From Squalus acanthias (lineage: Eukaryota), in assembly GCA_030390025.1 (NCBI GenBank), contig CM059432.1, positions 34,784,001 to 34,848,000 on the forward strand: 64,000 bases of DNA. Direction: 5' to 3'. This document shows, one piece after another, positions 2,720 through 64,000 of the stretch. Each line of letters begins with the position of its first letter. Within the stretch, counting starts at the first letter, position 1. Both the position numbers and the translations under genes were made by a program. The notes below the pieces were generated by a model. That model searched no databases, was not told where the DNA came from, and worked only from the letters and a program-made list of their open reading frames with translations.

Positions 2720-3429
2720 GGGGGAAAAATTGGGTTGATTTGTGCCTCTCGTTAGCGCCCCCAGGGGGCGCAAATCCCCTAGCGCCCGGGCGCGGCACCA
2801 CTAACATCTCCTGCGTAATTCAGCGGGAGGTTAGCGGCGGTGGTAGCTGGTAGCACCCCGCAGCACTGCGCAACCGCCAATGACGTCATCACCGTGCGCA
2901 GAGCCCCGGCCGCAAGCTTCCCTTGCGCCCTCTGACCTGTCGGTGGACGATATGTCCGACAGAGCCAGGGGGCGTTTCTGCAGCGGCGGCAGTGGTGCTA
3001 GTAAAAGGGGCAGGTGTCGGGTGGCCATTTTTTTTTGGTCGACTGCCAGCACCTGCCCCCTTCCCCTTTTTTCCTCGGGGTGCCGGCCGCGATCGCTCAG
3101 TCCAACATTCCTCTTGAGTGCTGGGCTGTTTTCACGGCACCCCGCTCTCCGGTGGTCTAGCAGGGCCCCGGTGCATGCAGCGCTAGGCTCCTCCCCTTTA
3201 ATCAGGGGAGGAGGCCTGCAATGACGAGGCGCTACGTGCCAAGGCGTGTGGCGCTGTTGCACGCATCGCCACGATCTTCAGTTATAGCGCCCCAAGAAGG
3301 AGGTGGAGCGCTTCCAGTAGCTTCCTGCTTGGGCCGCTACTATTGAATTTCCAGCGGAGGGGCACTAACTTTTTGGGGGGGCGACATTAGCCCCCCAAAA
3401 GGGGCGCCATCCAATTTCTCCCCCCCCCC
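2720..3429. mobile_element. GC-rich non-autonomous Harbinger element (MITE A)
   Basis: TIR GGGGGAAAAATTGG / CCAATTTCTCCCCC; repeated TAGCGCC motifs; visibly homologous to 23719-24511. Confidence 0.8.
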
Positions 3430-13235: not shown

Positions 13236-14526
13236 AAGAGTTGGAAAGACAGAGGGCGGTGCTCTACCCGGCAAGTGGCAGGAGGCCCTCGCCGCAAGTC
13301 TTCCGTGCCATGTGGAGGGAGGTAGCCCAGCAGGTCTCGGGCAGCACTGTGGTCCCCAGGACCCACACACGGTGCAGGAAGAAATTTAACGACCTCACTC
13401 GGGTGGTCAGGGTGAGTCAATCCTTCAACAAACGCTTCATACCACCATCTGTATCACAATCTTCACACAGTGCACAAAGCACCACACCCCCAGCACTCAC
13501 CCACCAATAATCTCCACCTACCAAGATTCACACCCACATCTCAGACCTTGCACACAATGACAGCTATTCAACTATAGCAGGCACATCATCCAAACACTTT
13601 GCTCCACACTCACTCACACACTTTCCTTTCTCTTGCAGTCCAAGGTGGTACACAACAGGAGGGAGCAGGAGTGCACAGGCGGGGGACAAGCCGACACCCA
13701 ACTACTGTCTGAGCTGGAGACTATTAGGTACCAGCTGGTGGGCGCTGTGGCCACCGGCGAAGTTGAGCCCCTTGCGGCCAACAACAGTATGTTCATCCCT
13801 ACTCCTTCTTCTCACATCCCACTTCCCCCTCACCCCACAAGCCTTTCGCATGTTCTAACTAATCATGTTGTCTCCATGCATTTCTCCCTTCCTGCCCCCC
13901 TCCCCTCACCTTAACCCAACTCTTGTCCCTTTATACTTTCAGATGATCAGAAAGCACCTGAGGCGCATGCCCCTGAGGGCAATGTTGAGAGCGAGGTGGG
14001 AGAAGACGAGTAGGAAGAACACACCGCGTCACTGCATGTCTCACCCGCAGGCACCAGCTCAGATACTGGAACCACGCATTCTTTAAAGGCTAGTATAGTA
14101 GTGAGATCTGCACAGGGTGATGCACCAGGGATGAGCGGGCTGCAGCAAGGCCAGGGGGGAAGGGTAGCTCGGGGGCCAGCTCCCCGGAGGGTGAGTTTGT
14201 GCGCGAGTTCTACTGCACAGGATTCAGATGAGAACCTCGATGGGGAGGCCTTTAGAAGAAGGGTGATGGGCATGCACGCGGAGATGATAGGTGCAATGAC
14301 AAGGGTGTCCGAGAGCCTGTCAGCAATGATAAGGAGCGTGGAGGAGTCCACCTCCAACATTGCACAAGGCTCTGCGCACACCATGGAGCCCATCATTTCC
14401 AGTCTGCTAAGGATGGTGGACTCCCAGAGAGACCGTGGCGAGCCAGACCTGATGCTGCATGTGATGGGCGATCTGGCAGCTTCCACTGCAGCACAGGCGG
14501 ATATGACGCAATGTCTTAGTGCTGTA
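13233..14526 (+). pseudogene. Harbinger Myb/SANT-like gene: exon 1 (13233-13411), exon 2 (13639-13786), 5' part of exon 3 (13943-14526)
   Basis: WREVAQQVS..RTHTRCRKKFNDL trihelix motif; GT-AG introns keep frame (SKVVHNRREQECTGGG); in-frame TAG at 14011. Confidence 0.85.
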
Positions 14527-16935
14527 AAGGATGTCACTGAGAGGCTGCAGGACACTGAGGCGGGAGGGTGAACAGCCAGAGGTCGTTGTCCATATCGGTA
14601 CCAACGACATAGGCAGAAAGAGGGATGAGGTCCTGCAGGCAGAATTTAGGGAGCTAGGGGAGAGATTAAAAAGCAGGACCTCAAAGGTAGTAATCTCCGG
14701 ATTACTCCCGGTGCCACGTGCTAGTGAGTACAGGAATAGAAGGATAGAACAAATGAATGCGTAGCTGGAGAGATGGTGCACAAGGGAGGGCTTCAGATTC
14801 CTGATGCATTGGGACTGTTTCAGGGGAAGGTGGGACCTGTACAAGCCAGACGGGTTACACCTCAACAGAGCCGGGGCCAATATTCTTGCGGGGAGATTTG
14901 CTGGTGCTGGTCGGGAGGGTTTAAACTAGCTTGGCGGGGATGGGCACCAGCATATAGGAGTAGAAAAGAGGAATAAGGTGCATAAAAGAGTGAGTGTGTT
15001 GGATAGTACTAGAGAAGAAAGTAGTACTAGAGACGGAAGTAGTACCATATTAGATAGGAGCAGACTAAGAAAGACTACGAAAAATTCAAAAATGGGTTTA
15101 GAATGTAGGTACGTAAACGCACAAAGTGTGGTGAATAAGGTTGGTGAGCTACAAGCACAATTAGCCGTGTGGCAACATGATGTTGTGGCAATAATGGAAA
15201 CGTGGCTTAAAAACAGTGAGGACTGGGCACTTAATATTCAAGGGTACAAGGTATTCAGAAAAGATAGGAAGGAAGAAAGCGAGGTGGGGTGGCAGTGCTG
15301 ATTAAGGAAGACATTGTAGTGTTGGAAAGGGAGGATGTTCTTGAGGGGACAAGGACAGAATCCATTTGGTTAGAGTTGAGGAGCAAAAAGGGTATGATCA
15401 CACTATTAGGGGTATTCAATAGGCCTCCAAATAGTGAGAGGGAGGTGGAGGAGCAAATCTGCAGGGAAATCGCAGAGATATGCAAGAGCTATAGAGTGGT
15501 GATATTGGGGGACTGTAATTACCCAAATATCGATTGGGATAATGCTAGGGTAAAGGGAAAGGAGGGGGAGGAATTTCTGAAATGTGTTCAGGAGAAATTC
15601 CTTTACCAATGTGTTCTTGGCCCAACTAGGAAGGAGGCATTGCTGGATCTGGTGCTGGGGAATGAGGTGGGCCAGGTCGACCAAGTGTCTGTGGGAGAAC
15701 ACTTGGGTACGAGTGATCATCGTATCATAAGATTTAGATTAGCAATTGAGAGGAGCAAGGAACAATCTAGAGTGGAACTTCTAAACTGGAATAGGGCTAA
15801 CTTCAATGGGATGTGAAAGGATCTAGCCAGGGTAAAATGGAACCAAAGACTGACAGGAAAAACTGTAACGGAACAATGAGTGATCTTTAAGGAGGAGATG
15901 TTCCAAGTACAGGCTAGGTACATTCCAACAAGAGGGAAGGGTAAGGGAACCAAAGCAAGGGCTCCTTGGATGACGAGGGAGATAGAGAAGATGATGAAAC
16001 AAAAAAAGAGAGTGTATGATCCATGTCAGGTGAATTCTTCAAGGGAGAACCAGATCAAATACAATAAGTTGAGAGGGGAAGTGAAGATGAAAATAAGATT
16101 GGCAAAGAGAGAATATGAGAGTAGAATGGCGGTTAACATAAAAGGGAACCCAAAAATCTTCTACCGGCATGTAAACAGTAAGCGGGTAATAAGAGGCGGG
16201 TGGGGCCTATTAGCGCCAAAGAAGGTGTTATATGCTTAGAGGCGTAGGGCAAGGCTAGAATACTCAATGAGTACTTTGTATCGGTGTTTACTAAGGAGGT
16301 GGATGCTGACATAATATCGGTAGCAGTGGAAAAGGTAGAAGCAATGGAAGGGGTGAAAATTGATAGACAGGATGTACTAGAAAGGTTGGGTATGCTTAGA
16401 GTGGATAAGTCGCCCAGTCCAGATGGTTTGCATCCTAGATTGCTAAGGGAATTGAGGGAGGAGATAGCGGAAGGGCTTGCCATAATTTTCCAATCTTCCC
16501 TAGATGCGGGGGAGGTGTCTGAGGATTGGAAAGTGGCAAATGTGACACCATTGTCCAAGAAAGGGTGTAAGGACAATCCTAGTAACTACAGTTTAACATC
16601 TGTGGTGGGTAAAGTTTTAGAAACAATAATCAAGGAAATATTAACGTGCACTTGGAGAGGTTTAAGCTAATTAAGGAGAGCCAACACGGATATGTAAAAG
16701 GCAGATCATGTTTGACTAATCTAATTGAATTTTTTGATGAAGTAACAGGGAGGATCGATGAAGGCAATGCAATGGATGTTGTCTACATGGATTTTAGGAA
16801 GGCGTTTCACAAAGTACCACATAGAAGGCTGGTTAACAAAATTGAGGCTCATGGAATAGGTGGGTCTGTGGCAGCTTGGATAAGGAATTGGCTTAAGGAC
16901 AGAAAACAGCGAGTTGTGGTAAATAGCTGTTTTTC

Positions 16936-19900
16936 ATAAGAACATAAGAACATAAGAAATAGGAGCAGGAGTAGTCCATTCGGCCCTTCGAGCCTGCTCC
17001 GCCATTCAATGAGATCATGGCTGATCTTCTGCCTCAATTCCATTCACCGGCCTTATCACCATATCCCTTGATGCCCTTACTAGTCAGAAATCTGTTGACT
17101 TCTGTTTTGAATATACCCAATGACTGAGCCTCCACAACCCTCTGGGGCAGAGAATTCCAAAGATTCACCACCCTCTGTGAGAAGAAATGTCTTCTCATCT
17201 CAGTCCTGAATGGCCTACCCTTTATCCTGAGGCTGTGGCCCCTGGTTCTAGACTCCCCAGCCAAGGGAAACATTCTCCCAGCATCCACCCTATCAAGCCC
17301 TGTAATAATTTTGTATGCTTCAATGAGATACCCTCTCATTCTTCTGAATTCAAGAAATTACAGGCCTAGTTTACTCAATCTCTTCTCATGCAACAGTCCT
17401 GCCATCCCAGGAATCAATCTCGTGAACCTTCGTTGCACTCCCTCTATGGCAAGTATATCCTTCCTTAGGTAAGGAGACCAAAATTGTACACAGTACTCCA
17501 GGTGTGGTCTCACCAAAGCCCTATATAATTGGAGTAAGACTTCTTTACTCCTGTACTCAAATCCTCTTGTAATGAAGGCCAGCTTACCATTTGCCTTCCT
17601 AATGGCTTGCTGCACCTGCACATTCACTTTCAGTGACTCATGTACAAGGACACCCAGGTCCCTTTGAGCATCTGCATTCCCCAATCTTTCACCATTTATC
17701 AAATACTCTGCCTTTCTGTTTTTTCTACCAAAGTGGATAACTTCACATTTATCCACATTATATTCCATCTGCCATGTTCTCGCCCACTCACTGAGCCTGT
17801 CGAGATCCCCTTGAAGCCTCTTCACATCCTCTTCGCAACTGACACTGCCACCTAGCTATGTGTCCTCAGCAAATTTGGAAATGTTACATTTAGTCCCCTC
17901 ATCCAAATCATTGATATAGATTGTGAATAGCTGGGGCCCAAGCACCGATCCTTGCGGTACCCCACTAGTCACAGCCTACCATCCTGAAAAAGACCCGTTT
18001 ATCCCTACTCTTTGTTTTCTGTCTGTTAACCAATTCTCAATCCATGCTAGTATATTACCCCCAATTCCATATGCCCTAATTTTGTTCACCAACCTCTTGT
18101 GTGGGACCTTATTGAAGGCCTTCTGAAAATCCAAATACACTACATCTACTGGTTCCCCTTTGTCTACTCCACTAGTTACATCCTCAAAGAAATCCAATAG
18201 GTTTGTCAAACAGGACTTCCCTTTCATAAATCCATGTTGACTCTGCCCAATCTTACTATTAGTTTCTAAGTGCCCAGTTATTTCATCCTTTATAATAGAT
18301 TCCAGCATTTTCCCAACTATTGATGTGAGGCTAACAGGTCTGTAGTTCCCTGTTTTCTCTCTCCCTCCTTTCTTAAATAGCGGGGTTACATTTGCTATCC
18401 TCCAATCTGCAGGAACCATTCCAGAATCTATAGAATTTTGGAAGATGACAACCAATGCGTCCACTATCCCAATGGCCACCTCTTTCAAAACCCTAGGATG
18501 TAGGTCATCCAGTCCTTTGGATTTATCGACTTTTAGTCCCATTCATTTTGCTAGTACTGTTTTTTTACTAATAATAATTTCTTTAAGTTCCTCATTCTCA
18601 CCACACCCTTGGTTTTCTCGTATTTCTGGGAGGTTTTTTTGTGTCTTCCTCCGTGAAGACAGAAACAAAGTATTTATTTAATTTCCCTGCCATTTCCTCA
18701 TTCCCCATTATAATTCTCCCGTCTCTGACTGTAAAGAACCTACATTTACCTTTGCCAGTCTTTTCCTTTCCTTTATAGAAGCTTTTACAATCCTTTTTTA
18801 TATTTTTCGCTAGTTTATGCTCATATTCCATTTTCCCTTTCTTTATCAATTTCTTGGTCCCCCTTTGCTGATTTCTAAAAAGATCCCAATCCTCAGGCTG
18901 ACCGCTTTTTCTGGCAACTTTATAAGCTTCCTCCTTTGACTTAATACTAGCTTTAATTTCTTTTGTTAGCCATGGTTGGATCACTTTTCCTTTTGGGTTT
19001 TTATGCCCTAGAGGAATATATGTTTGTTGCAAATTATGCATTATTTCCTTGAATGTTAGCCATTGTATGTCCACCTTCATACCTTTTAGTGTAGTCTCCC
19101 AATCTACCATGGCCAACTTGTCCGTCATACCCTTGTAGTTTCCTCTGTTTAGATTGAAGAACTTAGTTTCAGATTGGACTACATCACTCTCAAACTTAAT
19201 ATAAAATTCAATCATATTATGGTCACTTGTCCCTAAAGGCCCCTTTACCACAAGATTATTGATTCGCCCTTTCTCATTACACGGTACCAGATCCAGAATA
19301 GCCTGTTGGTTTGTTCATCCCTGTCTGGCATAAAAATAAAACAAAAAAGGTGACTCAACCATGGCTGACAAGGGAAATCAGGGATAGCATAAGATCCAAT
19401 GAGAGGACATATAAATTGGCCAGAAAAAGTAGTAAACCTGAGGATTGGGAGCAGTTTAGGATTCAGCAAAGGAGGACAAAGGGATTAATTAAGAGGGGGA
19501 AAATAGAGTAAGCTTGCAGGGAACATAAAAACTGACTGTAAAAGTTTTTATAAATATGTGAAGAGAAAAAGATTGGTGAAGTCAAGCGTAGGTCCCTTGC
19601 AGTCAGAATCAGGGGAATTTATAATGGGGAACAAAGAAATGGAAGACCAATTAAATACATACTTTGGCTCTGTCTTCACAAAGGAGAACACAAATAACCT
19701 CCCAGAGATGTCGGGGAACATAGGGTCTAATGAGAGGGAGGAACTGAATGAAATCAGTATTTGTAGGGAAATGGTGTTAGGGAAATTGACGGCATTAAAG
19801 GCCGATAAATCCCCAGGGCCTGATAATCTACATCCTAGGGTACTTAAGGAAGTGGCCCTAGAAATAGTAGATGCATTGCTGGTCATCTTCCAAAATTCTA

Positions 19901-21912
19901 TAGACTCTGGAACAGTTCCCATGGATTGGAGGGTAGCTAATGTTACCCCACTGTTCAAAAAGGTGGTAAAGAAAAAACGGGGAATTATAGCCTGACATCG
20001 GTTGTGGGGAAAATGCTAGAGTCCATTATAAAAGATGTAATAGCAGAGCACTTGGAAAACAGTGACAGGATTGGACAAAGTCAACATGGATTTACAAAAG
20101 GTAAATCGTGCTTGACTAATCTACTGGAATTTTTTGAGGATGTAACTGATAGAATAGATAAGGGAGAACCAGTGGATGTGGTGTATTTGGACTTTCAGAA
20201 GGCTTTCGATAAGGTCCCGCATAAGAGATTAGCGTGTAAAGTTAAGGCACATGGGATTGGGGGAAAGGTACTGACTTGGATAGAGAACTAGTTGGCAGAC
20301 AGGAAGCAAAGAGTTGGAATAAACAGGTCTTTTTCCGAGTGGCAGGCAGTGACTAGTGGGGTTCCGCAGGGATCGGTCCTAGGACCCCAGCTATTCACTA
20401 TATATATTAATGATCTAGACGAGGGAACTAGATGTAATATCTCCAAGTTTGCAGATGACACAAAGCTGGGTGGGCGTGTGTGCTGCGAGGAGGATACCGA
20501 GAAACTCCAGTATGATTTGGACAGGTTGGGTGATTGGGCAGAAGCATGGCAGATGCAGTATAATGTGGATAAATGCGAGGTTATCCACTTTGGTGGCAAA
20601 AACAGAAAGGCAGATTATTATCTGAACAGCAATAGATTGGGAGAAGGGGAAGTGCAACGAGACCTGGGTGTCCTTGTGCACCAGTCGCTGAAGGTAAGCA
20701 TGCAGGTACAGCAGGCGATTAAGAAGGCAAATGGTATGTTGGTCTTCGTAGCGAGAGGGTTTGAGTACAGGAACAAGGATTATCTTGCTGCAGCTGTACA
20801 GGGCCTTGGTGAGACCACACCTTGAGTATTGTGTGCAGTTTTGGTCGCCTTATCTGAGGAAGGATGTTCTTGCCATGGAGGGTGTGCAGCGAAGATTCAC
20901 CAGACTGATACCTGGGATGGCAGGAATGACGTACGAGGAGAGATTGGGTCGATTGGGCTTATACTCGCTGGAGTTTAGAAGAATGAGAGGAGATCTCATT
21001 GAAACTTATAAAATTCTAACAGGGCTAGACAGACTGGATGCAGGAAGGATGTTCCCGATGGCGGGTGAGTCCAGAACAAGAGGTCACAGTCTAAAGATAA
21101 GGGGTAAGCCATTTAGGACAGAGATGAGGAGCAATTTCTTCACCCAGAGAGTGGTGAACCTGTGGAATTCTCTACCACAGAAGGCAGTTGAGGCCAAGTC
21201 AGTAAATATATTCAAGAAAGAGTTAGATATATTTCTTAAGGGTAAAGGTATCAAGGGATATGGGAGAAGGCAGGGACAGGGTACTGAGTTTGGATGATCA
21301 GTCATGATCTCATCGAATGGTGGAGCAGGCTCGAGGGGCCGAATGGCCTACTCCTGCTCCTATCTTCTATGTTTCTATGTTTCCCTGGTTGGTTCCTCCA
21401 CATACTGATCCAGGAAACCATCTCGCATTCCAAGAATTCGTCCTCCACACTATTAGTGGTCATTTGATTTGCCCAGTCAATATGTAGATTAAAGTCTCCC
21501 ATGATTACCGTATTGCCCTTGTTACATGCACTTCTAATCTCTTGATTGACACTGTGCCCTACATTACCACTATTGTTTGGTGGCCTATACACAACTCCCA
21601 AAAATGTTTTCCGCCCTTTGCTGTTTCTTAGCTCCACCCAAACTGATTCCAGTTCTACATCATGATCTGCCAGGCCAAGATCTTTTATCTCTACCGTACC
21701 GATCTCATCCTTATTAACAGCGCTACGCCACCTCCTTTTCCTTTTTGTCTGTCCTTCCAAAATGTTGAGAACCCTAAAACATTCAGTTCCCAGATTTGGT
21801 TACCCTGCAACCATGTCTCTGTATTGGCAATTACATCATACCTATTTACTTCTATTAGTGCCATTAATTCATCCACCTTGTTGCGAATGCTACGTGCATT
21901 TAGATAAAGTGC
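16936..21912 (-). mobile_element. Middle CR1 (16936-19307 and 21383-21912)
   Basis: (TTCTTATG)n tail at 16936; VEEPTRE|QAILDLV is split by the inner element; the 5' end is at [12 protein letters not shown]. Confidence 0.9.
19308..21382 (+). mobile_element. Inner CR1, 5'-truncated
   Basis: RT motifs [11 protein letters not shown] and KFADDTK; (CTATGTTT)2 tail ending at 21382. Confidence 0.92.
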
Positions 21913-22819
21913 CTGGAGGATGGTAGACAGTGGTGTTCCCCAAGGGTCAGTGCTGGGGCCACTGCTTTTTTTGATATATATAAATGACCTGGATATTTGA
22001 ATACAAAGTAGAATTTCTAAATTTGCCGATGACACCAAACTTGGAGGTGTGGCAAACAGTGAGGATGATACCAATTGACTGCAACAGGACATAGAAAGGC
22101 TAGCAGAATGGGAAGACAAGTGGCAGATGGAATTTAATACAGAGAAGTGTGAGGTGATGCATTTTGGCAGAAGGAACAGGGAGAGGCAATATACACTTAA
22201 TGGCACAGTTTTAAAGAGTGTGCAGGGACAGAGGGAGTTAATGTGCATAGATCCCTGAAGGTGGCAGGAGATATTGAGCTGGTTATTGCGTCCAGTTCTG
22301 GTCACCACGCTTTAGGAAGGATGTGAAGGCCCTTGAGAGGGTGCAGAGGAGATTTACCAGAATGGTTGTGGGGATGGGGGATCTTCGCTACAAGGACAGG
22401 TTGGAGAAGCTGGATTCGTTTTCATTAGAGCAACGGAGGTTGAGGGGTGATTTGATAGAGGTATATAAGATTATGACGGGCTTGGATAGGCTAGACAGGG
22501 AAAGGTTGTTCCCACTAGTTGATGGTACAAGGACTAGGGGACACCGATTTAAGGTTTTGGGCAAGAGATACAGGGGGGATGTGAGAAAAAACTTTTATAC
22601 GCAGCAAGTTGTGAGGACCTGGAATTCGCTGCCGACGGAAGTGGTGGAAGCGGAGACACTCAATGTTTTCAAGGGGAAACTGGATAGGCACTTGAGGGAA
22701 ATAAACTTGCAGGGCTATGGGGATAGAGCAGGGGAATGGGACTGACTCAATTGCTCTGCAGAGAGCTGGCATGGACTCGATGGGCCGAATGGTCTCCTTC
22801 TGTGCCGTTATGACTCTCT

Positions 22820-23707
22820 GGGGGGAAAATTCAGTTGGTTGCGCCTCCCGTTAGCGCCTTAAGAGGGCGCTAATGGGGCGCAAAGCAACTAGCGCCCGGG
22901 TGTGGCGATGTTTGCGCCGCTCGCGAAATTAACTAGACATTTTGCGGCGGCGCTAAACACTACCGCCACGATCTCCTGCGCCAGCAGATCGTGACGTCAG
23001 TCGAGTGCGCAACACCCCAGTAGCGCCCCGGAGCGGATATTGAGTGGTGCTCCCTGCCTTACCGCCTGACGCTAGCAACGACAGGTTGAGGGGAGCGTTT
23101 TGCAGTCAGGAAGGGACTGGGGGAGCGCTATTTAAAGGTGAACGCTTCCTGCCTTTTTTTGTTGGTGACATTTTTGAACCACGCATTCTGAGAGAGAGAG
23201 AGACTTCTGGAGAGATTCAACGCTGTGTGAAGGAGTTTTGGGTACTGAGCAGCACTTTGCAGGTTCATTTTGATTTGCCCTTCCTTGCATCTATTTAGAA
23301 GAGACTGTGGGGGCTGCACTCTGAGCTCTTTCCCTGGGCCTCTCCATTGTTCTTTCCAGCAGATTTGATGTACAGGTCTCTCCAGGCCGAGATTCAAGGC
23401 TGCAATGAGCAGGATGTGGATGGAGAGCAAGGTCAACCCTCCCCTTTAAGAACTGGCTGGCGCCATTGTGTCTCTGTTTCATTGCTGACTGACATCACAT
23501 GAGCTTCACCAGCGCTCTGAGGTAGCGCCTCGCTCCTCAGCCTTTGCGCCTTAAGACAGGTGTGAAGCGCCTGATTTAGCGCTCCAATCACCTCCAGGGG
23601 CGATAAAAGCCAAGTTTGCAGTCAGAGGCGATAATTAGCGCCAGGCGCTAATCTTTGCGCCTGGCCGATAATTGCACCCAAATGGGGCGATATTGAATTT
23701 TTCCCCC
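22820..23707. mobile_element. Non-autonomous Harbinger element (MITE B)
   Basis: GGGGGGAAAATTCA..TGAATTTTTCCCCC; left end matches the 26838 terminus; flanks TCT/TAT. Confidence 0.85.
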
Positions 23708-23718
23708 TATGACTCTAT

Positions 23719-24511
23719 GGGGGAAAAATTCAGTTGGTTTGCGCCTCCCGTTAGCACCTTAAGTGGGCGCTAATGGGGCGCAAAGCAACTAGCGCCCGGG
23801 TGCGGCACCGCCCACGCCTCCTGCGAAATTCAGTGGGAGGTTAGCGGCGGCACTAACCGGTAGCGCCCTGTGGCGCTGTGCCGCTGGCGATGACTTCATC
23901 GCCTTGCGCAGCGCCCCGCTCGCGCTCCGGCCGTGATCTTCGGTAGCGCCCCTTGACTTACCACCGGATGCTATGTCCGACGGGTTCAGGGGGGCCTACC
24001 TGCGGCCGGGGCAGTGCTAGTTAAAGGGGAGGTGGCGAGCGGCCATTTTTGTTGCTGGCTGCCTGCCAGCTCCTGCCCCCGTTGCTGTCCCCGGCCCCCG
24101 TGATAGCCCCCCCCCCCCCCCCCCCCCCCCCCCGCGAAGTGCCGGCTGCGCTCCAAGAGCCCGGCACTTCTCTTGAGTGCCGGGCTCTTTTGCCGGCACT
24201 GCCGATCTCCGGGGGCCCAGCTGGGCCCCGGTCCGCGCTGCGCAAGGCCCCTCCCCTTTAAGAAGGGGAGGAAGGCCTGCAATACCGCGGTGCGACGTGC
24301 CACAGCGACTGGCGCTGCAGCACGTAGCGCCACGATATTGACTCGCAGCGCCCCAAGAGGGATGTGGGGCGCCTCCAGTAGCGCCCCGCTTCCCTCTTGG
24401 GGCGCAACCACTTAATTTCCGGTGCAGGGGCGCTAATTTTTATGGGGCACTAAAAGTAGCGCCCCGGCGAAATTAGCGCCCCAAAGAGGGCGCGACGTCA
24501 ATTTTTCCCCC
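23719..24511. mobile_element. Non-autonomous Harbinger element (MITE C)
   Basis: GGGGGAAAAATT..AATTTTTCCCCC with TAT on both flanks. Confidence 0.88.
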
Positions 24512-24521
24512 TATGACTCTA

Positions 24522-25058
24522 ATGCAGTCTATGCTTGGTGGCATCCAATCTCAGACTGCTCTCATGCAGTCTCAGCTTGATGCCACGCAAGCTCTGACTG
24601 CTGCCATCATGGCTGGGTCTACCACCGTCCACCGGGGCTTTCACGGTGTCGCAGCAGGCCAGCAATCTGTACTCCAACAAATTGCTAGGGATGCTGAGGT
24701 GCTGCCATGGGGGAGTGACAGTGGGTCAGTGGAGCAGGAACCTGCTGTCCTCTCTCAGGATGACAGCATTCCTGCTCCTACCACTGCCACTCCGCCATTG
24801 CCCTTGTTGCTGCCGGTCATCCAGCCAGCCCAGACTGCTGCTGCTCATGCTGAGATGGTGCAGTCTACAGCTGGGCCTTCCAGGCCCACAGGTGGTCAAG
24901 GGCGTCATGCAAGGCCATCTGAAGTCTCCCACACGGACACTCAGCAGCCTTCCACCAGCCGTGCTGCAGCCACTGGGCCAACACTTCATAGGAGCACTAG
25001 AGTAGGCAAAGGCACAGTAACGACAGGCACTAAGGGATTGCACAAGATGAATAGTTAA
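24522..25058 (+). pseudogene. Harbinger Myb/SANT-like gene, 3' part of exon 3
   Basis: MQSMLGGIQ..HRSTRVGKG continues the frame from 14526; the C-terminus matches 38048-38215(-). Confidence 0.8.
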
Positions 25059-25239
25059 TATTTTGGTGTAAATATGTGTTCACTGATTATTGATAAATTT
25101 ATTAATTCAGTTTGGATTATTTTGTGGTCTCTCTCATTTCAGCTTAGCGCTGTGAAATGGCCTGCGACAGGGAAGGAATGATGTGGGGTTTAATTTATTC
25201 GAACTGCAATCTGATGAGCCGGTCACGGACCGACCTTCC

Positions 25240-26300
25240 GGAAGGCCGATTGATTGGCTGCCTCCACCCTCGCTCCTGTTCCTCCTTCTCCTCATCTCAC
25301 TCTTCCTCCTCCTGAAGTGGTCCCGCAATCCCTGGTGGCAAGGGCTGGGCCCTCATGATGGCCCAGTTGTGGAGCGTACAGCAGATCACCATGAAATGGG
25401 ACGCACACTCCGCCGAGTACTGGAGGGCTCCTCCCGAGCGGTCACGGCAGCAGAATCGTTGCTTCAGCACCCCGATGGTCTGCTCAATGATGTTCTTGGT
25501 GGCAGCATGGCTCTCATTATATGAGTGCTGGGCAGGAGTGTTGGGGTTGCGGAGGGGAGTCATGAGCCAGGTGGAGAGCGGATAGCCCTTGTCTCCAAGC
25601 AGCCAGTCACGAGCTTGACGTGGTGGCTGGAAGAGTGCTAGCACACCGGTCTGGTGCAGGATAAAGGCATTGTGGCTGCTGCCAGGATAGCGGGCATTGA
25701 CGGTGAGGATTCGCTGTGTGTGGTCGCTCACAAACTGCACATTAAGTGAATGGTAGCCTTTGCAGTTACGGAAGATCTCAGGATTGTTATGCGGTGCCCG
25801 CAAAGCCACGTGGATGCAGTCAATGGCGCCCTGCACCATGGGGAAGCCCGCTATCCTGGCAGAGCCACATGCATGTTCATCCTGCTTCTCTCTGGTGATG
25901 AGGAAGGAAATGTAGTCCCTTCTCCTACTGTAACCTCCCGGATGCAGCGATGGACGGTGAACTGCGAGATGTTAGCTATATCTCCCGTTGCAGACTGGAA
26001 GGATCCACTGGCGAAGAAATTGAGGGCGACGATGACCTTGACTGCCACTGAGAGAGCCATGGTCGCCCTGATCTGAGGCTCAAGGTCTGGTTGCAGGAGG
26101 TGGCAGAGTTCTGTGACCACCTCCTTGCTGGAGCGGAGCCTTCTAATACACTGGCTTAATTGGAGGAAGGAGAAATGTTCTCGGAATACCCTCAGAGGGT
26201 AAGGCCTCCTGTTGAGAGCCCTGATGGTCCTCCTCCTTCCTCTGGCCACATGCTCCAATCTTTCTCGCTGCCTCCTCTCCCTCCACAGTAGATCCTGGAG
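25240..26300 (-). pseudogene. Harbinger (HARBI1-like) DDE transposase, frameshifted
   Basis: [48 protein letters not shown]. Confidence 0.92.
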
Positions 26301-27164
26301 GGTGAGGTCGACTGACAGTACAAACCTCATTAATGTAACCAAGTGTAGCACTTTGATATGTTGTGAGAATAAATGCAACTAATTATTAGTAGCCACAACA
26401 CTCCTGATACTAAACAACCTTTAAATATCTGAATTAAACTGTTGCACAATGTTAAACTGACAAGGAAGCAGTACAAGAGCACTAACCTGACAGCTACGAC
26501 GCATTACTGAGGATCCCTTTAAGTAGCGCCCCTGGAGCCGGCATCCACCTGCTTGATGCCTCCTCTCCCTGTCGCTGTCGGGGCGAGGCGCTAAGGCGGG
26601 GGTAACAATGAATTTTGCTGATCGGGCGCCCAGTGAGCGTTGCAAACTCACTGATGTCACGATCTGCCTGACGCTGAGGTCCCTGGCGGTAACTCGTAGT
26701 GGCGGCGCTACGGGGGTGCTGGATTTGACATGCGTTGCTGGATTCGCCTCACCTCGCCCCGGCGCTACTGCATCAGCGCCCCATTAGCGCCCCCGCCAGG
26801 CGCTAACTGGAGGCGCTAACCAACTGAATTTTTCCCCCTTTATTTCTTTTCTACTTAACCATAGGGAGCATCTTAGCGCAGTCCGATCCTTTCCAAAATC
26901 ACTTTCCAGAAAGCAATTATTTAGTTTAAAAAATATTTATATTAATTCTTGGGATGTGGGCATCACTGGAAAGGGCGGCATTTATTGCCCATCTCTAGTT
27001 GCCCTGAGAAGGTGGTAGTGGGCTTTTGTCTTGAACCACTGCAGTCCGTGTAGTGAAGGTACTCTCACAATGCTGTTAGGTAGGAAGTTCCAGGATTTTG
27101 ACCCAATGATAATGATGGAACGGTGATTTATGTCCAATTCAGGATGGTGTGTGACTTGGAGAGG

Positions 27165-27510
27165 TACTGTACGTATACATGAGCTGACACTGAGATATAC
27201 AAGGGACGTACAGTATCAGACAGGAGTGACTCGTTCTCTTTTACCCACTGTGTAATGTACATGTACAGAATCTGACACTGTGACACACGCGAGCCGTACA
27301 GTACCAGACAATAGTGACTGGTTCCCTTTTACCTGGTGTGTACTGCACACGTACAAGAGCTGACACTGAGACACACACGAGCCGTACAGTACCAGACTGG
27401 AGTGAATCATTCCCCTTTACCTGATATGTATATGTACATGAGGTGCCACTAAGATGCACACAAGTTGTACAATACCAGACAGGAGTGAATCGTTCTAGTT
27501 TACCATTCCT
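27165..27510. repeat. Minisatellite, about 88-bp unit, four copies
   Basis: CTGACACTG recurs at 27184, 27272 and 27360, with a diverged fourth copy; GTACAGTACCAGAC core. Confidence 0.85.
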
Positions 27511-29133: not shown

Positions 29134-29587
29134 TGGAACTGTCCCTTTAATAGTCAATTCCTTTGATGGGGGCAGGGCATATACTCCTTTAATAGGCAGT
29201 ACCTCCGACGGTGGGGTGGGGGAGGACTGTACCCCTTTAATAGGCAGTGCTTTCGATGGGAGGGGTGGGGGGTAGGAACTGTACCCCTTTAATAGGCAGT
29301 GATTTCACGTGAGGGGGTTTACGTACCCCTTAATAGCAGTGCATGCGATGGAGGGGGGGGGGAGAGGAACTGTACCCCTTTAATAGGCAGTGATTTCACG
29401 GGGGAGGAGGATGTACCCTTTAATAGGCAGTGCTTTCGGGGAGGGGGTGGGGGGGTGGAGAGGAACTGTACCCCTTTAATAGGCAGTGGCTTTGATTGGG
29501 GGGCATGGGGGGGAGGAACTGTACCCCTTTAATAGGCAATGCCTCCGATGGTGAGGGGGTGGGGGAGGAACTGTACCCCTTTAATAC
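29134..29587. repeat. G-rich minisatellite, about 10 units of about 45-60 bp
   Basis: Core AGGAACTGTACCCCTTTAATAGGCAGTG separated by variable G-run spacers. Confidence 0.9.
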
Positions 29588-32227: not shown

Positions 32228-34030
32228 GGCGAAGGTAAATGTAGGTCCTTTACAGTCAAAGACAGGAGAATTTATAATGGGGAATGAGGAAATGGCAGAG
32301 AAATTAAATAAATACTTTGTTTCTGTCTTCACGGAGGAAGACACAAAAAAACCTCCCAGAAATACAAGAAAACCATGGGTGTGGCGAGAATGAGGAACTT
32401 AAAGAAATTATTATTAGTAAAAAAACAGTACTAGCAAAATTAATGGGACGAAAAGTCGATAAATCCCAAGGACCGGATGACCTACATCCTAGGGTTTTGA
32501 AAGAGGTGGCCATTGGGATAGTGGACGCATTGGTCGTCATCTTCCAAAATTCTATAGATTCTGGAATGGTTCCTGCAGATTGGAGGATAGCAAATGTAAC
32601 CCCGCTATTTAAGAAAGGAGGGAGAGAGAAAATGGGGAACTACAGACCTGTTAGCCTCACATCAGTAGTTGGGAAAATGCTGGAATCTATTATAAAGGAT
32701 GCAATAACTGGGCACTTAGAAACTAATAGTAAGATTGGGCAGAGTCAACATGAAAGAGAAGTCCTGTTTGACAAACCTATTGGATTTCTTTGAGGATGTA
32801 ACTAGTGGAGTAGACAAAGGGGAACCAGTAGATGTAGTGTATTTGGATTTTCAGAAGGCCTTCAATAAGGTCCCACACAAGAGGTTGGTGAACAAAATTA
32901 GGGCACATGGAATTGGGGTAATATACTAGCATGGATTGAGAATTGGTTAGCAGACAGAAAACAAAGAGTAGGGATAAACGGGTCTTTTTCAGGATGGCAG
33001 ACTGTGACTAGTGGGGTACCGCAAGGATCGGTGCTTGGGCCCCAGCTATTCACAATCTATATCAATGATTTGGATGAGGGGACTAAATGTAACATTTCCA
33101 AATTTGCTGAAGAGACAAAGCTAGGTGGCAGTGTCAGTTGTGAAAAGGATGTGAAGAGGCTTCAAGGGGATCTCGACAGGCTCAGTGAGTGAGCGAGAAC
33201 ATGGCAGATGGATTATAATGTAGATAAATCCACTTCGGTAGAAAAAACAGAAAGGCAGAGTATTTGATAAATGGTGAAAGATTGGGGAATGCAGATGCTC
33301 AAAGGGACCTGGGTGTCCTTGTACATGAGTCACTGAAAGTGAATGTGCAGGTGCAGCAAGCCATTAGGAAGGCAAATGGTATGCTGGCCTTCATTACAAG
33401 AGGATTTGAGTACAGGAGTAAAGAAGTCTTACTTCAATTATATAGGGCCTTGGTGAGACCACACCTAGAGTACTGTGTACAATTTTGGTCTCCTTACCTA
33501 AGGAAGGATATACTTGCCATAGAGGGAGTGCAACGAAGGTTCACGAGATTGATTCCTGGGATGGCAGGGACTGTCGTATGAGAAGAGATTGAGTAAACTA
33601 GGCCTGTATTCTCTTGAATTCAGAAGAATGAGAGGGTATCTCATTGAAGCATACAAAATTATTACAGGGCTTGATAGGGTGGATGCTGGGAGAATGTTTC
33701 CCTTGGCTGGGGAGTCTAGAACCAGGGGCCACAGCCTCAGGATAAAGGGTAGGCCATTCAGGACTGAGATGAGAAGACATTTCTTCACACAGAGGGTGGT
33801 GAATCTTTGGAATTCTCTACCCCAGAGGGTTGTGGAGGCTCAGTCATTGGGTATATTCAAAACAGAAGTCGATAGATTTCTGACTAGTAAGGGCATCAAG
33901 GGATATGACGATAAGGCCGGTGAATGGAATTGAGGCAGAAGATCAGCCGTGATCTAATTGAATGGCGGAGCGGGCTCAAAGGGCCGAATGGCCTACTCCT
34001 ACTCCTATTTCTTATGTTCTTATGTTCTTA
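32228..34030 (+). mobile_element. CR1, 5'-truncated, very similar to 16936-18755(-)
   Basis: RT motifs, (TTCTTATG)n tail, and the shared variant MRGYLIEAYK. Confidence 0.92.
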
Positions 34031-36774: not shown

Positions 36775-37900
36775 ATGGGTGCACTAGTAGGCATTCCACT
36801 TGGCCTACAGCATGACAGGGAGAATGAGCAGAGGTGACACAGAGCAGGACAAGCTGAGGGAAGAGGGAGGAGGGGGAGAAGGGCTCTCAGCAGGAGGCCA
36901 TGTCAGCCCAGGGTGTTCAGGGAGTAATACTACTACCTGAACCTCAGCGAGGAACAGTGTGTCAGATGTCTGCACTTCACCAAGGACGTCTCACTGAAAT
37001 CTGCCACCTGCTGCAGCCACAGCTGCAACCTCAAAGCAGGGCGAGGATCGCATTGCCAGTGGCTGTGAAGATCACGGTGGCCATGAAGTTTTATGCGTTG
37101 GGCTCCTTCCAGGCTGGAGCAGGAGATATTTGCAACATCTCCCAGATTACCGTGCAATGTTGCATTAGGAAAATAACTGAGGCTCTGTATTCCAAGAGAG
37201 CCGAATTCATTTCCTTTTCTCTGGCAAGAGAGCAGCAGGCGGAGCGAGCAGGCAGCTTCTCGAGGATTACAGGCTTCCCTATAGTTCAGGGTGCCATTGA
37301 CTGCACGCACGTCACTTTGCGGGCGCCGCATGTAAACGCTGAGATGTACCGCAACCGAAAGGGATTCCACTCCCTCAGTGTCCAGCTGGTGTACGACGAT
37401 ATTCAGCGAATCTTGCAGGTCAATGCCCGGTATCCTGGCAGCAGTAACGATGCCTTCATTCCGCGGCAGTCCCATCAGCATTTGGGCTACCACAACAAAC
37501 CAGAGGGTAGCTTCTGGGAGACAAGGGCTATCCGTTAACAACATGGCTCATGACTCCGGTGTGCAACCCATGGGCACGTGGGCAACATTCATACAACAAA
37601 AGCCATGCTGCCAAAGTATCATCGAGCACACCATTGGCGTGCTGAAGCAACGCTTCCGCTGCCTGGACCACTCTGGAGGAGCCCTGCAGTACTCAGCAGA
37701 GCAGATGTTGAGATTCGTGGTGGCCTTGCCATCATGAGGGCACAGCCTTTGCCACCAGCCATACAGCAACCAGCTGAGGAGCAGGAGGAGGAGGAGGAAG
37801 AGAAGGGAGGAGGCAACCCAGACAGCCCCTTTCTGGCCGGGCTGACCATGACTGACTCATCCGGCTGCGATACGGGTAAACGCAACCCCAATTCCACATT
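36775..37900 (+). pseudogene. Harbinger DDE transposase, frameshifted
   Basis: [49 protein letters not shown] at 37981. Confidence 0.92.
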
Positions 37901-38047
37901 CACCAACATCCCACACCTTACCTTCCCTCTGTCGCTGACCATCACAGAGTCCGCATGGCCACAATGCAAAAATACAAGCCAATAAAAAATAAACATTCCA
38001 AACCAAATTTATAAATTAAATCATGCCATATTGCATACAAACGTAAA

Positions 38048-38215
38048 CTAATCACCCTTGTGCATTCCCTCAGTGCCTGTCTTCCGTGTGCTTTTGCCTG
38101 TCCTAGTGCTTCTACGCAGTCCTACCCCAGTGACTGCAGCATGGCTGGTGGAAGGCTGCTGACTTTCAGTGCAGGAGACTGCAGATGGCCTTGGAGGACG
38201 ACCTTGAGCAGCTGT
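38048..38215 (-). pseudogene. Harbinger Myb-like gene C-terminus (native orientation)
   Basis: QQPSTSHAAVTGVGLRRSTRTGK..GMHKGD* matches the end of ORF 24513-25058. Confidence 0.8.
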
Positions 38216-38222
38216 GGAGATA

Positions 38223-39366
38223 GAGCGTGCTCCAATGTTCTCAGATGCTGCACTGGAGGCCTTGGTGGAGGAGGCGGACAGGAGGAGAGAGGGAGCTAGG
38301 AGGCCCTCCAGACAAACTCTGCAAAAGTAGTGGGAGCAGGTAGCCTTGGTGGTCAATGCCAGAAGTCAAGACCCGTGGATCTGGATGCAGTGCCGCAAAA
38401 AGTTAATTGACCTCACATGAGTGGTCAAGATCAGTGAATTCATCTTCAAATGCCATATTCCACCAACTGCACCACTAGCCTCACACACTGCTCAAGGCAC
38501 CACACCCCCATTATTTACCTATCAACAATCTCTATTAACCAGAACTCATACCTCACATTCATAGCTTCACCTCACCCACACACAATTAGCACTGCTGCAA
38601 GCCTCACACTCGCAGCTTGCACACACTGTCAGCTATTCAACCATGACAGGCACATCACCCAAACATATTGCACAACACTCACTGACACACTTCCCTCTCT
38701 CTTGCAGGACAAGTTGGCCCATAACCGGAAACAGCAGGAGCTAACTGGTGGGGGAACAGGCACGGCTGCATGACCTTACCCTGATGGAGGAGATGGTGGT
38801 TGCCATCATTGGAGTGGCCATCGCTGAGCCCATGGCCAGCGGCAGGGCTGAAACAATTGAAGATGACAGTATCCTCATACCTAATCCTACTTCTGACATC
38901 CCACTTCCCCCTCATCCCACAATCTCTTCTGCTTTCCCCCCCTCCTCTCTCCACAGCTCTACCCTTGTGCCTTTCTCCTTTCAGATACCCAAGAACTGCA
39001 ACCTGGCCAGGCAGTGGTGAAGGAGCAAGAACTGGAAGAGGAAGAAGGCACTGATGATAAAGACAGGGCACATCACTCAATTTAACACTCACAGCCAGCA
39101 GCTCAGATACTGAGGGCTGGATTTTGTCTTGGGGTCGGGTTGGGGTCATGTCCTCCGCATTTCGTGTTCCCCCCCCCCGACTCCAGATTAATGTGGATGA
39201 ATGATGCAATTTTCACTTAATTGGGCAATTGAGTTCCAGCATGTGGGAACCCATGAACTAATTAGTGGTTTCAGTCTGAAAGTCGCCTCTGATGATGTCA
39301 TCATTGCTGCTGCATTGCAGGTCAGAGACTGCCTGCCTGGCTTTTGCTGTGAGTGAGTGGACCTGG

Positions 39367-39397
<31 letters not shown>

Positions 39398-40017
39398 CCA
39401 TGCAGTCTCTGAAGACATTCAATGCAGCAGCATCAGAGGCGACTTTCACACCTAATACTACTACCTTCATCACATCTCCGTTGTAATAGTGGACCTGCAG
39501 CTGATAGTCAGCTATGCACTTGTGCTCCCGCCAGGTTTCACTGGAGTGTTTCACACCAGGCGTACTTCACGTCAGAAAAGGGTTAAACTAGCTAAAACGT
39601 TTCAAAATGGCATTACAGAGCCAATTTAGGGCTTGTTAAGGGCTTTAATGGCCTCTCCCGCCTCTTGGAGGCGGGACGGAGTCGGGAACCCCGCGACTGA
39701 TTTTGTCAAAATTGCGTGGAGGCGGGATGGAGTCGGGATGGGGTCGGGACCCCCGACCCCGCAAATTTAACCCCCCACACGCCTCCAAACCCGACTCCAC
39801 GGGTCATTCAAAATCCAGCCCTGACACTCCGCCTACTTTAGAGGATAGCATAGACATGGGATCTGCATGTGGTGAGACACTGGGCATGAGTGGCTTGCAG
39901 CCAGGGCAGGGCTCAAGGGTAGCGCAGGTGCCAGCTCCCCAGAGGGTGAGGTCGCACACGAGTTCTGCTGCAGAGGACTCAGATGAGCACTTCGATGGGG
40001 CAGGCTACAGAAGAAGT
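38223..40017 (+). pseudogene. Inverted Harbinger Myb/SANT gene segment (exons about 38223-38429, 38708-38868, 38985-40017)
   Basis: ERAPMFSDAALEALVEE..WMQCRKKLIDL and DKLAHNRKQQELTGGG; same intron positions as 13233-14526. Confidence 0.8.
39114..39821. mobile_element. Harbinger-type MITE inserted in the Myb exon
   Basis: Perfect 13-bp TIR GGGCTGGATTTTG; TGA TSD at 39111-39113 and 39822-39824. Confidence 0.88.
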
Positions 40018-62931: not shown

Positions 62932-64000
62932 CAGCTGTGAAATTGGAGCCTTTAGCATGGCTGCTGAGGCCGAATTTGAAGAAAAAATGGCGGCCGCCAC
63001 GCTTCCACCCGCTTCCAGCAGGTCCTGCGGCAGCCGCCATTTTGGGCAGGTCAGCAGCGCTGCCATTGCCTGCGTTCGCTCCAGATATTTAGATAACGCA
63101 GATCGTGATGTCAATGAGTGTGCAACGCTGATTTGACATACAATCTGCCATTTTCGACGTCGCCACTCCATTTAACGCCCTCTCCTAATCACGAACAGTT
63201 GACCATGCGTTCAGCAGCAGGAAGGAGCCCCAGGCTGTTTGAAGAGATCATCAACAACTTGCAGCTGACTTGCTTTTTCATTTCTACTGGCTGTGTAAGT
63301 TTGTGCAACTGTTTGGAGCTTTCCAGAGTTATTTAAAATTGCTGAGGTGACAGGGAGTGTTGTTGCAAGTGGAGAACGCCTTGCTTCTCATTTAAAGGGT
63401 TCTGCTCACACCACTTGCTCCCAGTCATTGGGGCTCTACTTGCAGTCCCCCTCGTGCTCGAGAATGACAGGGAGATGGAGCGGAGGCAGCGAAGAAGAGG
63501 ATGATGTGCTCACAGAGGGAGGAGGAGGAGGAGGGTTCTCAGCAGGAGGCCTTATGCACATAGGGTCTTCTGAGAGCACTTTACCTGAACTTAAGCAAGG
63601 AGCAGTGTATTCACAGAACACTGCCACCTCTTGCAAGCAGACCTGCAGCCTCAGAGCAGGGCGACCACAGCTCTCCCAGTGGCTCTCAATGTCACCGTGG
63701 CCCTCAATCTTTTCGCCACCGGATCCTTCCAGCCTGGAGCAGAAGACATAGCTAACATCTCCCAGTTCGCCGTCCATCGCTGCATCCGGGAGGTCACAGA
63801 GGCTCTCTACTCCAGGAGAAGAGACATCATTGTCTTCGTTCTGAACAGAGAGAAGCAGGAGGAGCGCATATGTGGCTTTGCCAGGATATCGGGCTTCCCC
63901 ATGGTGCAGGGCACCATCGACTGCACACACCTGGCTTTGCAGGCACCGCATATCAATCCTGAGATGTTCTGTAACTGCAAAGGCTACCACTCACTTAATG
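62932..64000 (+). mobile_element. PIF/Harbinger transposon 3, left part with a degraded transposase (about 63425 to the window end)
   Basis: ALNLFATGSFQ and GFPMVQGTIDCTHL..KGYHSLN. Confidence 0.85.

Follow-up and report, generated by a model that had tools for sequence, protein, structure and literature searches.

Structure of the locus

The window, by which the whole analysed stretch of 64,000 nucleotides of Squalus acanthias DNA is meant, contains two non-autonomous Harbinger-type elements, designated B and C, in the tail of a LINE. The LINE in turn interrupts, at 14524|24520, the putative Myb gene that belongs to an autonomous Harbinger of greater age. A further non-autonomous copy, designated A, lies outside this nest. 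The features are listed below by their positions in the window.

2720..3424, + strand: element A, an older relative of C outside LINE tails (TIR ends, alignment to C)
13241..14524, + strand: 5' part of the Myb/SANT gene (ORF2) of the older autonomous Harbinger (weak Pfam matches, contig junctions, reading frame)
14525..22808, + strand: CR1-like LINE inserted in Harbinger ORF2 (endonuclease, RT motif, tail)
22809..22819, + strand: tail unit 1 (TATGACTC) followed by TCT, the target duplication to the left of B, in which one base departs from TAT
22820..23707, + strand: element B, non-autonomous, Harbinger-type, 888 bp (TIR, TSD, subterminal words)
23708..23718, + strand: 11-bp spacer composed of TAT (right duplication of B), GACTC, and TAT (left duplication of C)
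23719..24511, + strand: element C, non-autonomous, Harbinger-type, 793 bp (TIR, TSD, subterminal words)
24512..24521, + strand: right duplication of C (TAT), the remainder of unit 3, and a final TA overlapping the LINE target
24520..25058, + strand: 3' part of Harbinger ORF2 (open frame 24477–25058, joined to 14524 in other copies)
25297..26378, − strand: Harbinger transposase in two frames, broken (DDE_Tnp_4, HARBI1 homologues)
26749..26838, − strand: TIR and subterminal region at the one end of the autonomous element that survives (81–83% similar to the left termini of B and C)

The Harbinger identity proposed in the earlier note is upheld by the surrounding element, in which Pfam DDE_Tnp_4 matches the transposase at 25300–25971 (E 1e-33) and a 60-residue piece of ORF2 (P0001, 13241–13420) matches Myb_DNA-bind_4 and Myb_DNA-bind_5 weakly, at E 2e-4, both under the Pfam curated cut-offs. 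The homologue search with the transposase returned eight proteins, all from sharks and all annotated as putative nuclease HARBI1; the best, from Pristiophorus japonicus, is 76% identical. The ORF2 frame runs on across the 14524|24520 junction, and the sequence that precedes 24520 in public contigs matches 14500–14524 (94 and 119 contigs in two runs). The Myb gene and the minus-strand transposase are convergent. The outer flank of the surviving end at 26838 is TTT; the outer left end of this element and its TIR were not found within the window. Pfam returned no match for the 3' part of ORF2 on its own, for four of the six pieces in the Harbinger search, or for two of the four pieces in the LINE search, and Rfam returned none in 22400–26900. 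B and C, to which this autonomous partner is tied through the common end sequence, are classed as PIF/Harbinger-type (PHIS) on the DDE transposase of the partner, the 12–14-bp TIRs, and the 3-bp TSD.

The tail-bearing LINE, a putative CR1 as labelled in the earlier note, contains an endonuclease match (Exo_endo_phos_2, E 1.9e-12, at 15268–15813), an RT motif (FADD) near 22020, and an octamer tail. Other LINE sequence of some 5 kb, nested within it (~16935–21911), splits it in two, and the pieces flanking the nested block match adjoining parts (776–1005 and 1026–1264) of another LINE in the window. The nested LINE at 16937–18713 is 97–99% like 32272–34030 on the opposite strand, so that this part is young. 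The trinucleotide TAA is common to 14525–14527 and 24520–24522, that is, to both LINE junctions.

Other Harbinger copies are present in the window. At 36858–40016, a transposase (+, 36858–38008) is followed by the 5' part of a Myb gene (+, 38220 onward), and the 3' end of the Myb gene stands on the minus strand just before that 5' part; this copy is probably the product of an internal inversion or of the fusion of two copies. Its Myb gene contains a 708-bp element of another family (39114–39821) with a 12-bp TIR, GGGCTGGATTTT, and a perfect TGA duplication; in its flank, positions −4, −1, and +4 are A, C, and T, but +1 is C. Another transposase, at 63299–64000, is 76% like 25297–26378 and runs past the end of the window. 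Short tandem arrays were also observed, with 88-bp units at 27164–27495 and 52-bp units at 29159–29586.

Two elements in consecutive units of one LINE tail

The arrangement of the insertion site, read directly from the window, is TATGACTC-TCT-(B, 22820–23707)-TAT-GACTC-TAT-(C, 23719–24511)-TAT-GACTC-TA. Excision of B and C, each together with one copy of its 3-bp duplication (TCT/TAT for B and TAT/TAT for C), restores three perfect TATGACTC units plus TA, which shows that B occupies the second unit and C the third. The layout described in the earlier note, with two elements in consecutive tail units at one phase of the 8-mer, is thus confirmed letter by letter, and the nesting likewise bears out its claim that the family was active after the LINE landed: the autonomous Harbinger was inserted first, then the LINE, and then B and C, in either order. 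The chance that any pair among three random insertions would fall at most 11 bp apart in the window is ~0.001, a figure for this single window.

The TIRs of B span 14 bp, of which 13 match, and those of C are perfect over 12 bp; in B, one change lies in the left duplication and one in the left TIR. The TIR pattern, searched with up to two mismatches, has 10 matches in the window against 1.84 expected, and none of 100 shuffles reached 10. Seven of these are both ends of A, B, and C and the end of the surrounding element at 26825–26838. Matches to the terminus pattern in two viral loci and one metagenome locus were discarded as chance, with no element beyond the pattern. The left 40 bp of B agree with the 26838 end at 37/39 positions and those of C at 37/40, as the earlier note had stated for roughly this length, and the likeness extends to 82–90 bp at 81–83%. 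The label MITE used in that note fits in part: the longest ATG frames, of 63 codons in B and 36 in C, indicate that both are non-coding, and both are abundant in public contigs, but their lengths of 793 and 888 bp lie above the 100–500 bp given for MITEs (PMC2836001). Inside C, a run of 27 Cs (24107–24133) is missing at the corresponding place in A. Inside B, about 217 bp (23286–23509), starting near a splice-donor-like stretch, are skipped by public contigs in three of four runs, which represents a shorter B-type subfamily.

An old tandem duplication of one element with its tail unit, followed by divergence, could account for the 95% identity of the first 86 bp of B and C (81/85 columns) and for a spacer equal to one unit plus a duplication. 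Identity falls to 64–69% inward and at the right end, however (130/202 over the next 200 bp and 99/144 over the last 150 bp), and the middles (B 330–600, C 300–540) are not alignable, with an alignment score of 20 against a shuffle mean of 18.8, so that B and C represent two subfamilies and two insertions rather than a duplication. The earlier note had drawn the same distinction from the shared ends and differing interiors. Furthermore, C is nearer to A, 20 kb off, than to B (544/701 for A and C against 518/734 for B and C), the octamers of the spacer are intact while the elements are 30% different, and in public contigs B and C are each abundant and appear as distinct types. A duplication was accordingly rejected on the unalignable middles and the kinship of C with A, and we regard it as highly improbable.

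It is scarcely more than conceivable that B and C were inserted into a source LINE elsewhere and were co-copied with it as an extended 3' end, a process by which LINE-tail junctions could increase in number even if targeting did not recur. In its favour, the inserted block is closed by a tail unit that has TAA in common with the target, and the 5' junction bears TAA as well. This route would still require two insertions in one tail, however, the tails of this LINE mostly continue into unrelated flanks, and the left ends of B and C mostly adjoin mixed flanks. CR1/L2 copying begins near the 3' end structure, which also counts against co-copying.

A local effect, in which the first element attracted the second, or the autonomous copy attracted both, and the motif fixed no more than the exact base, appears rather unlikely. 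It could operate through short-range hopping or through binding of the Myb protein to resident subterminal words. B and C do lie inside a related autonomous element, 2.3–4 kb from its surviving end, and the words AGCGCC/GGCGCT occur 9 times in B, 13 times in C, and 8 times in the autonomous end (shuffle means below 2), against 10 occurrences in the remaining 61 kb of the window. In contrast, B and C belong to different subfamilies, and one therefore did not arise from the other by local copying.

Flanks of other copies and the target motif

The stretch is contained in 20 public runs, four of which, bearing four organism labels from three studies and consisting entirely of contigs, were compared over 22700–24640. 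Among the rows listed (24 of 6,733, covering part of the contigs), loose ends occur at the left TIR of C, before 23719, in 350, 437, 423, and 420 contigs in the four runs, and at the left TIR of B, before 22820, in 368 contigs in one run. Copies in the tail align through the reference and give no loose end, so these counts cover non-tail copies only and would not reflect even a large tail share. The agreement of the outside sequence is 0.37–0.39, which indicates that the left ends are scattered over many unrelated locations. In the four runs, the final ten majority letters before C are AAAAGACATA, AAAAGACAAA, AAAAGACATA, and AAAATACATA, and those before B are AAAACACATA in one run. All four runs have the left-flank majority AAA(G/C/T)AC ahead of the triplet, the endings being mostly AAA(G/C)AC-ATA and the triplet ATA or AAA; these are majority letters and not a logo, and because a flank with a terminal T is displaced from the rows counted, the last letter is biased. 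The extended target preference suggested in the earlier note is thereby supported for the left arm; the rows listed show left flanks only, and the right arm is assumed by symmetry. No joint skipping B, C, or both, as an empty allele or orthologous site would give, was present among 15 of 1,165 listed, none of the listed contigs spans the locus, and the tail-plus-TIR junction had no match in the genome-contig collection.

On the basis of these flanks and of the Harbinger3_DR system, the preferred target would be a near-palindromic sequence of about 15 bp, approximately AAA(C/G)AC-WWW-GT(C/G)TTT, of which the central three bases would be duplicated on insertion. In (TATGACTC)n tails, ACTC precedes and GACT follows each inner TAT, an arrangement that fits the core A-S-N-C-[WWW]-G-N-S-T, and an insertion in one tail unit would leave the adjacent unit whole, so that a three-unit tail could offer two good sites 8 bp apart. 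When scored against AAASAC-www-GTSTTT, with 12 arm positions, both filled sites match 7/12 arm positions and contain the core; the unfilled unit 1 matches 5/12 and lacks it. The tail fits the strict core at exactly the two filled positions. Across 62,313 bases, the core is found 14 times, compared with 9.9 on average in shuffles. Ten other tail-like stretches were inspected, all of them empty; six fit the looser core only and none the strict core. Read on the opposite strand, the filled site is AGAGTC-ATA, near the majority AAAGAC-ATA, and the loose-end majority differs from the reverse-oriented tail at three of the last ten places. If both tail sites are to be filled by three insertions distributed over 14 equal sites, the probability is 0.033, against 1.5e-9 without preference; with looser cores it is 0.0026 (49 sites) and 0.00016 (197 sites).

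Several points weigh against this motif-based account. The tail matches no more than 7/12 arm positions, and among the 10,215 A/T triplets of the window, 382 do at least as well; the core was formulated with these data already in view; and the site of A does not match the core. The left flank of A ends in TTA outside any LINE tail, the earlier note having likewise reported a different flank at 2720, and its right end continues into extra Cs; no TSD was recoverable from the flanks of A (2720–3424).

The earlier note had further proposed that the family may favour CR1 tails in their own right, and this was not supported. The flanks at hundreds of left ends per run are mixed, with a Harbinger3_DR-like majority; the tail fits a general motif; and in run X16, 230 contigs extend the LINE tail as ATGACTCTATGA followed by mixed letters, with no TIR in the majority. 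Strict tail specificity is rejected on the mixed flanks and on these tails without an element. A form of true tail targeting, in which the family or a subfamily is tuned or tethered to the LINE 3' end and tails are hit far beyond their fit to the motif, is unlikely on the same observations and on the position of A and the autonomous end outside tails. It would be favoured by the occupation of both full sites of one tail by two subfamilies, which make up two of the three non-autonomous copies in the window, and by the existence of retrotransposons that aim at other transposons, Tx1 and Tx1-Mar (PMC4494074). In its boldest version, which we hold to be doubtful, the shark Harbinger has had its core shifted from CWG to A/T and its arms tuned, and (TATGACTC)n LINE tails are its main landing pad, filled unit by unit; it would then be a DNA transposon that tracks the spread of a retrotransposon and builds head-to-tail arrays in its tails.

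The double insertion is probably explained by an extended target preference meeting an abundant repeat that happens to fit it, a hot spot rather than homing. B and C would belong, as non-autonomous copies, to a Harbinger family that is abundant in sharks, and would depend for their movement on two proteins supplied in trans by an autonomous relative, namely a DDE transposase and a Myb/SANT protein. By analogy with Harbinger3_DR, the subterminal AGCGCC words are probably where the Myb/SANT protein binds. Two subfamilies would each have occupied one of the two tail sites, and motif fit by itself may account for the double hit. This explanation predicts fewer insertions in (TATGATTC)n tails and in first units, with both orientations equally frequent. 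The earlier suggestion that LINE tails offer the family a low-harm target found no support.

Relation to known systems and significance

The closest likeness is to Harbinger3_DR and Harbinger3N_DR, which share with the present family a DDE transposase and, to judge by the weak matches in ORF2, a Myb protein, as well as non-autonomous derivatives, a 3-bp TSD, and an extended palindromic target (PMC3016246, PMC2836001). The target preferred by Harbinger3_DR in zebrafish is AAACACCWGGTCTTT (PMC3016246), the left arm of which is AAACAC, while the right arm reads AAAGAC when reverse-complemented. In contrast to its CWG, the triplet here consists of A/T only (TAT, TAT, and TTT, with majority ATA/AAA), the host is a shark, and a fitting site recurs in a LINE tail. 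For Harbinger, both proteins are described as required, the Myb protein as binding the ends, and the preference as spanning 9–15 bp (PMC2836001). NuwaI elements (PHIS) resemble the family in TIRs of 12–61 bp that start with GGG, in two ORFs with a Myb/SANT domain (putative in the present family), and in their animal hosts, but their defining CWG duplication is absent here (PMC4482050, Han et al. 2015). The strict PIF/Harbinger TSD, TWA, does not agree with TAT, TAT, and TTT in the window or with the ATA/AAA majority, TTA being seen at the left flank of A only. Placement in NuwaI (CWG) or in strict PIF/Harbinger (TWA), as these are delimited in PMC4482050, was therefore rejected on the TSD. Plant PIF/Pong elements and Tourist MITEs such as mPing likewise have a two-protein system, an A/T-rich 3-bp TSD, and a 9-bp preference, whereas their TSD is TWA, the elements here measure 700–900 bp, and the arms here are longer (PMC2836001).

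Double insertion through site preference has been described as a source of tandem dimers of the P-element, hobo, and jockey in Drosophila (PMC5932611), which, like B and C, are head-to-tail pairs arising from two insertions at a preferred site. In contrast to those dimers, B and C are separated by an 11-bp spacer of two duplications plus 5 bp, because two adjacent sites of an 8-bp repeat were used rather than one site twice. Dada (PMC3706591) and Tx1/Tx1-Mar (PMC4494074) also insert at a fixed base of a multicopy sequence; these are reported almost solely in their targets, whereas hundreds of unrelated flanks per run were seen here. A rule of thumb for target-specific elements is that more than 20% of flanks belong to one repeat type (PMC4494074). 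PMC4482050 reports PHIS elements as absent from sharks in the genomes of January 2014, and PMC9179366 reports Harbingers as absent from the elephant shark and calls for more species; on these statements, the family described here is probably undescribed in those terms.

A literature search that extended to few subscription journals and excluded Repbase returned no publication that describes DNA transposons inserted in the tails of LINEs; if tails should prove enriched beyond their fit to the motif, this would be a case of a DNA transposon targeting the tail of another element. The shark family appears to keep the arms of the 15-bp Harbinger3_DR target while the duplicated core differs, a combination relevant to target recognition by Harbinger proteins. 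One mobile element can, moreover, seed hot spots for another, in that each new copy of such a LINE may bring with it two adjacent landing sites.
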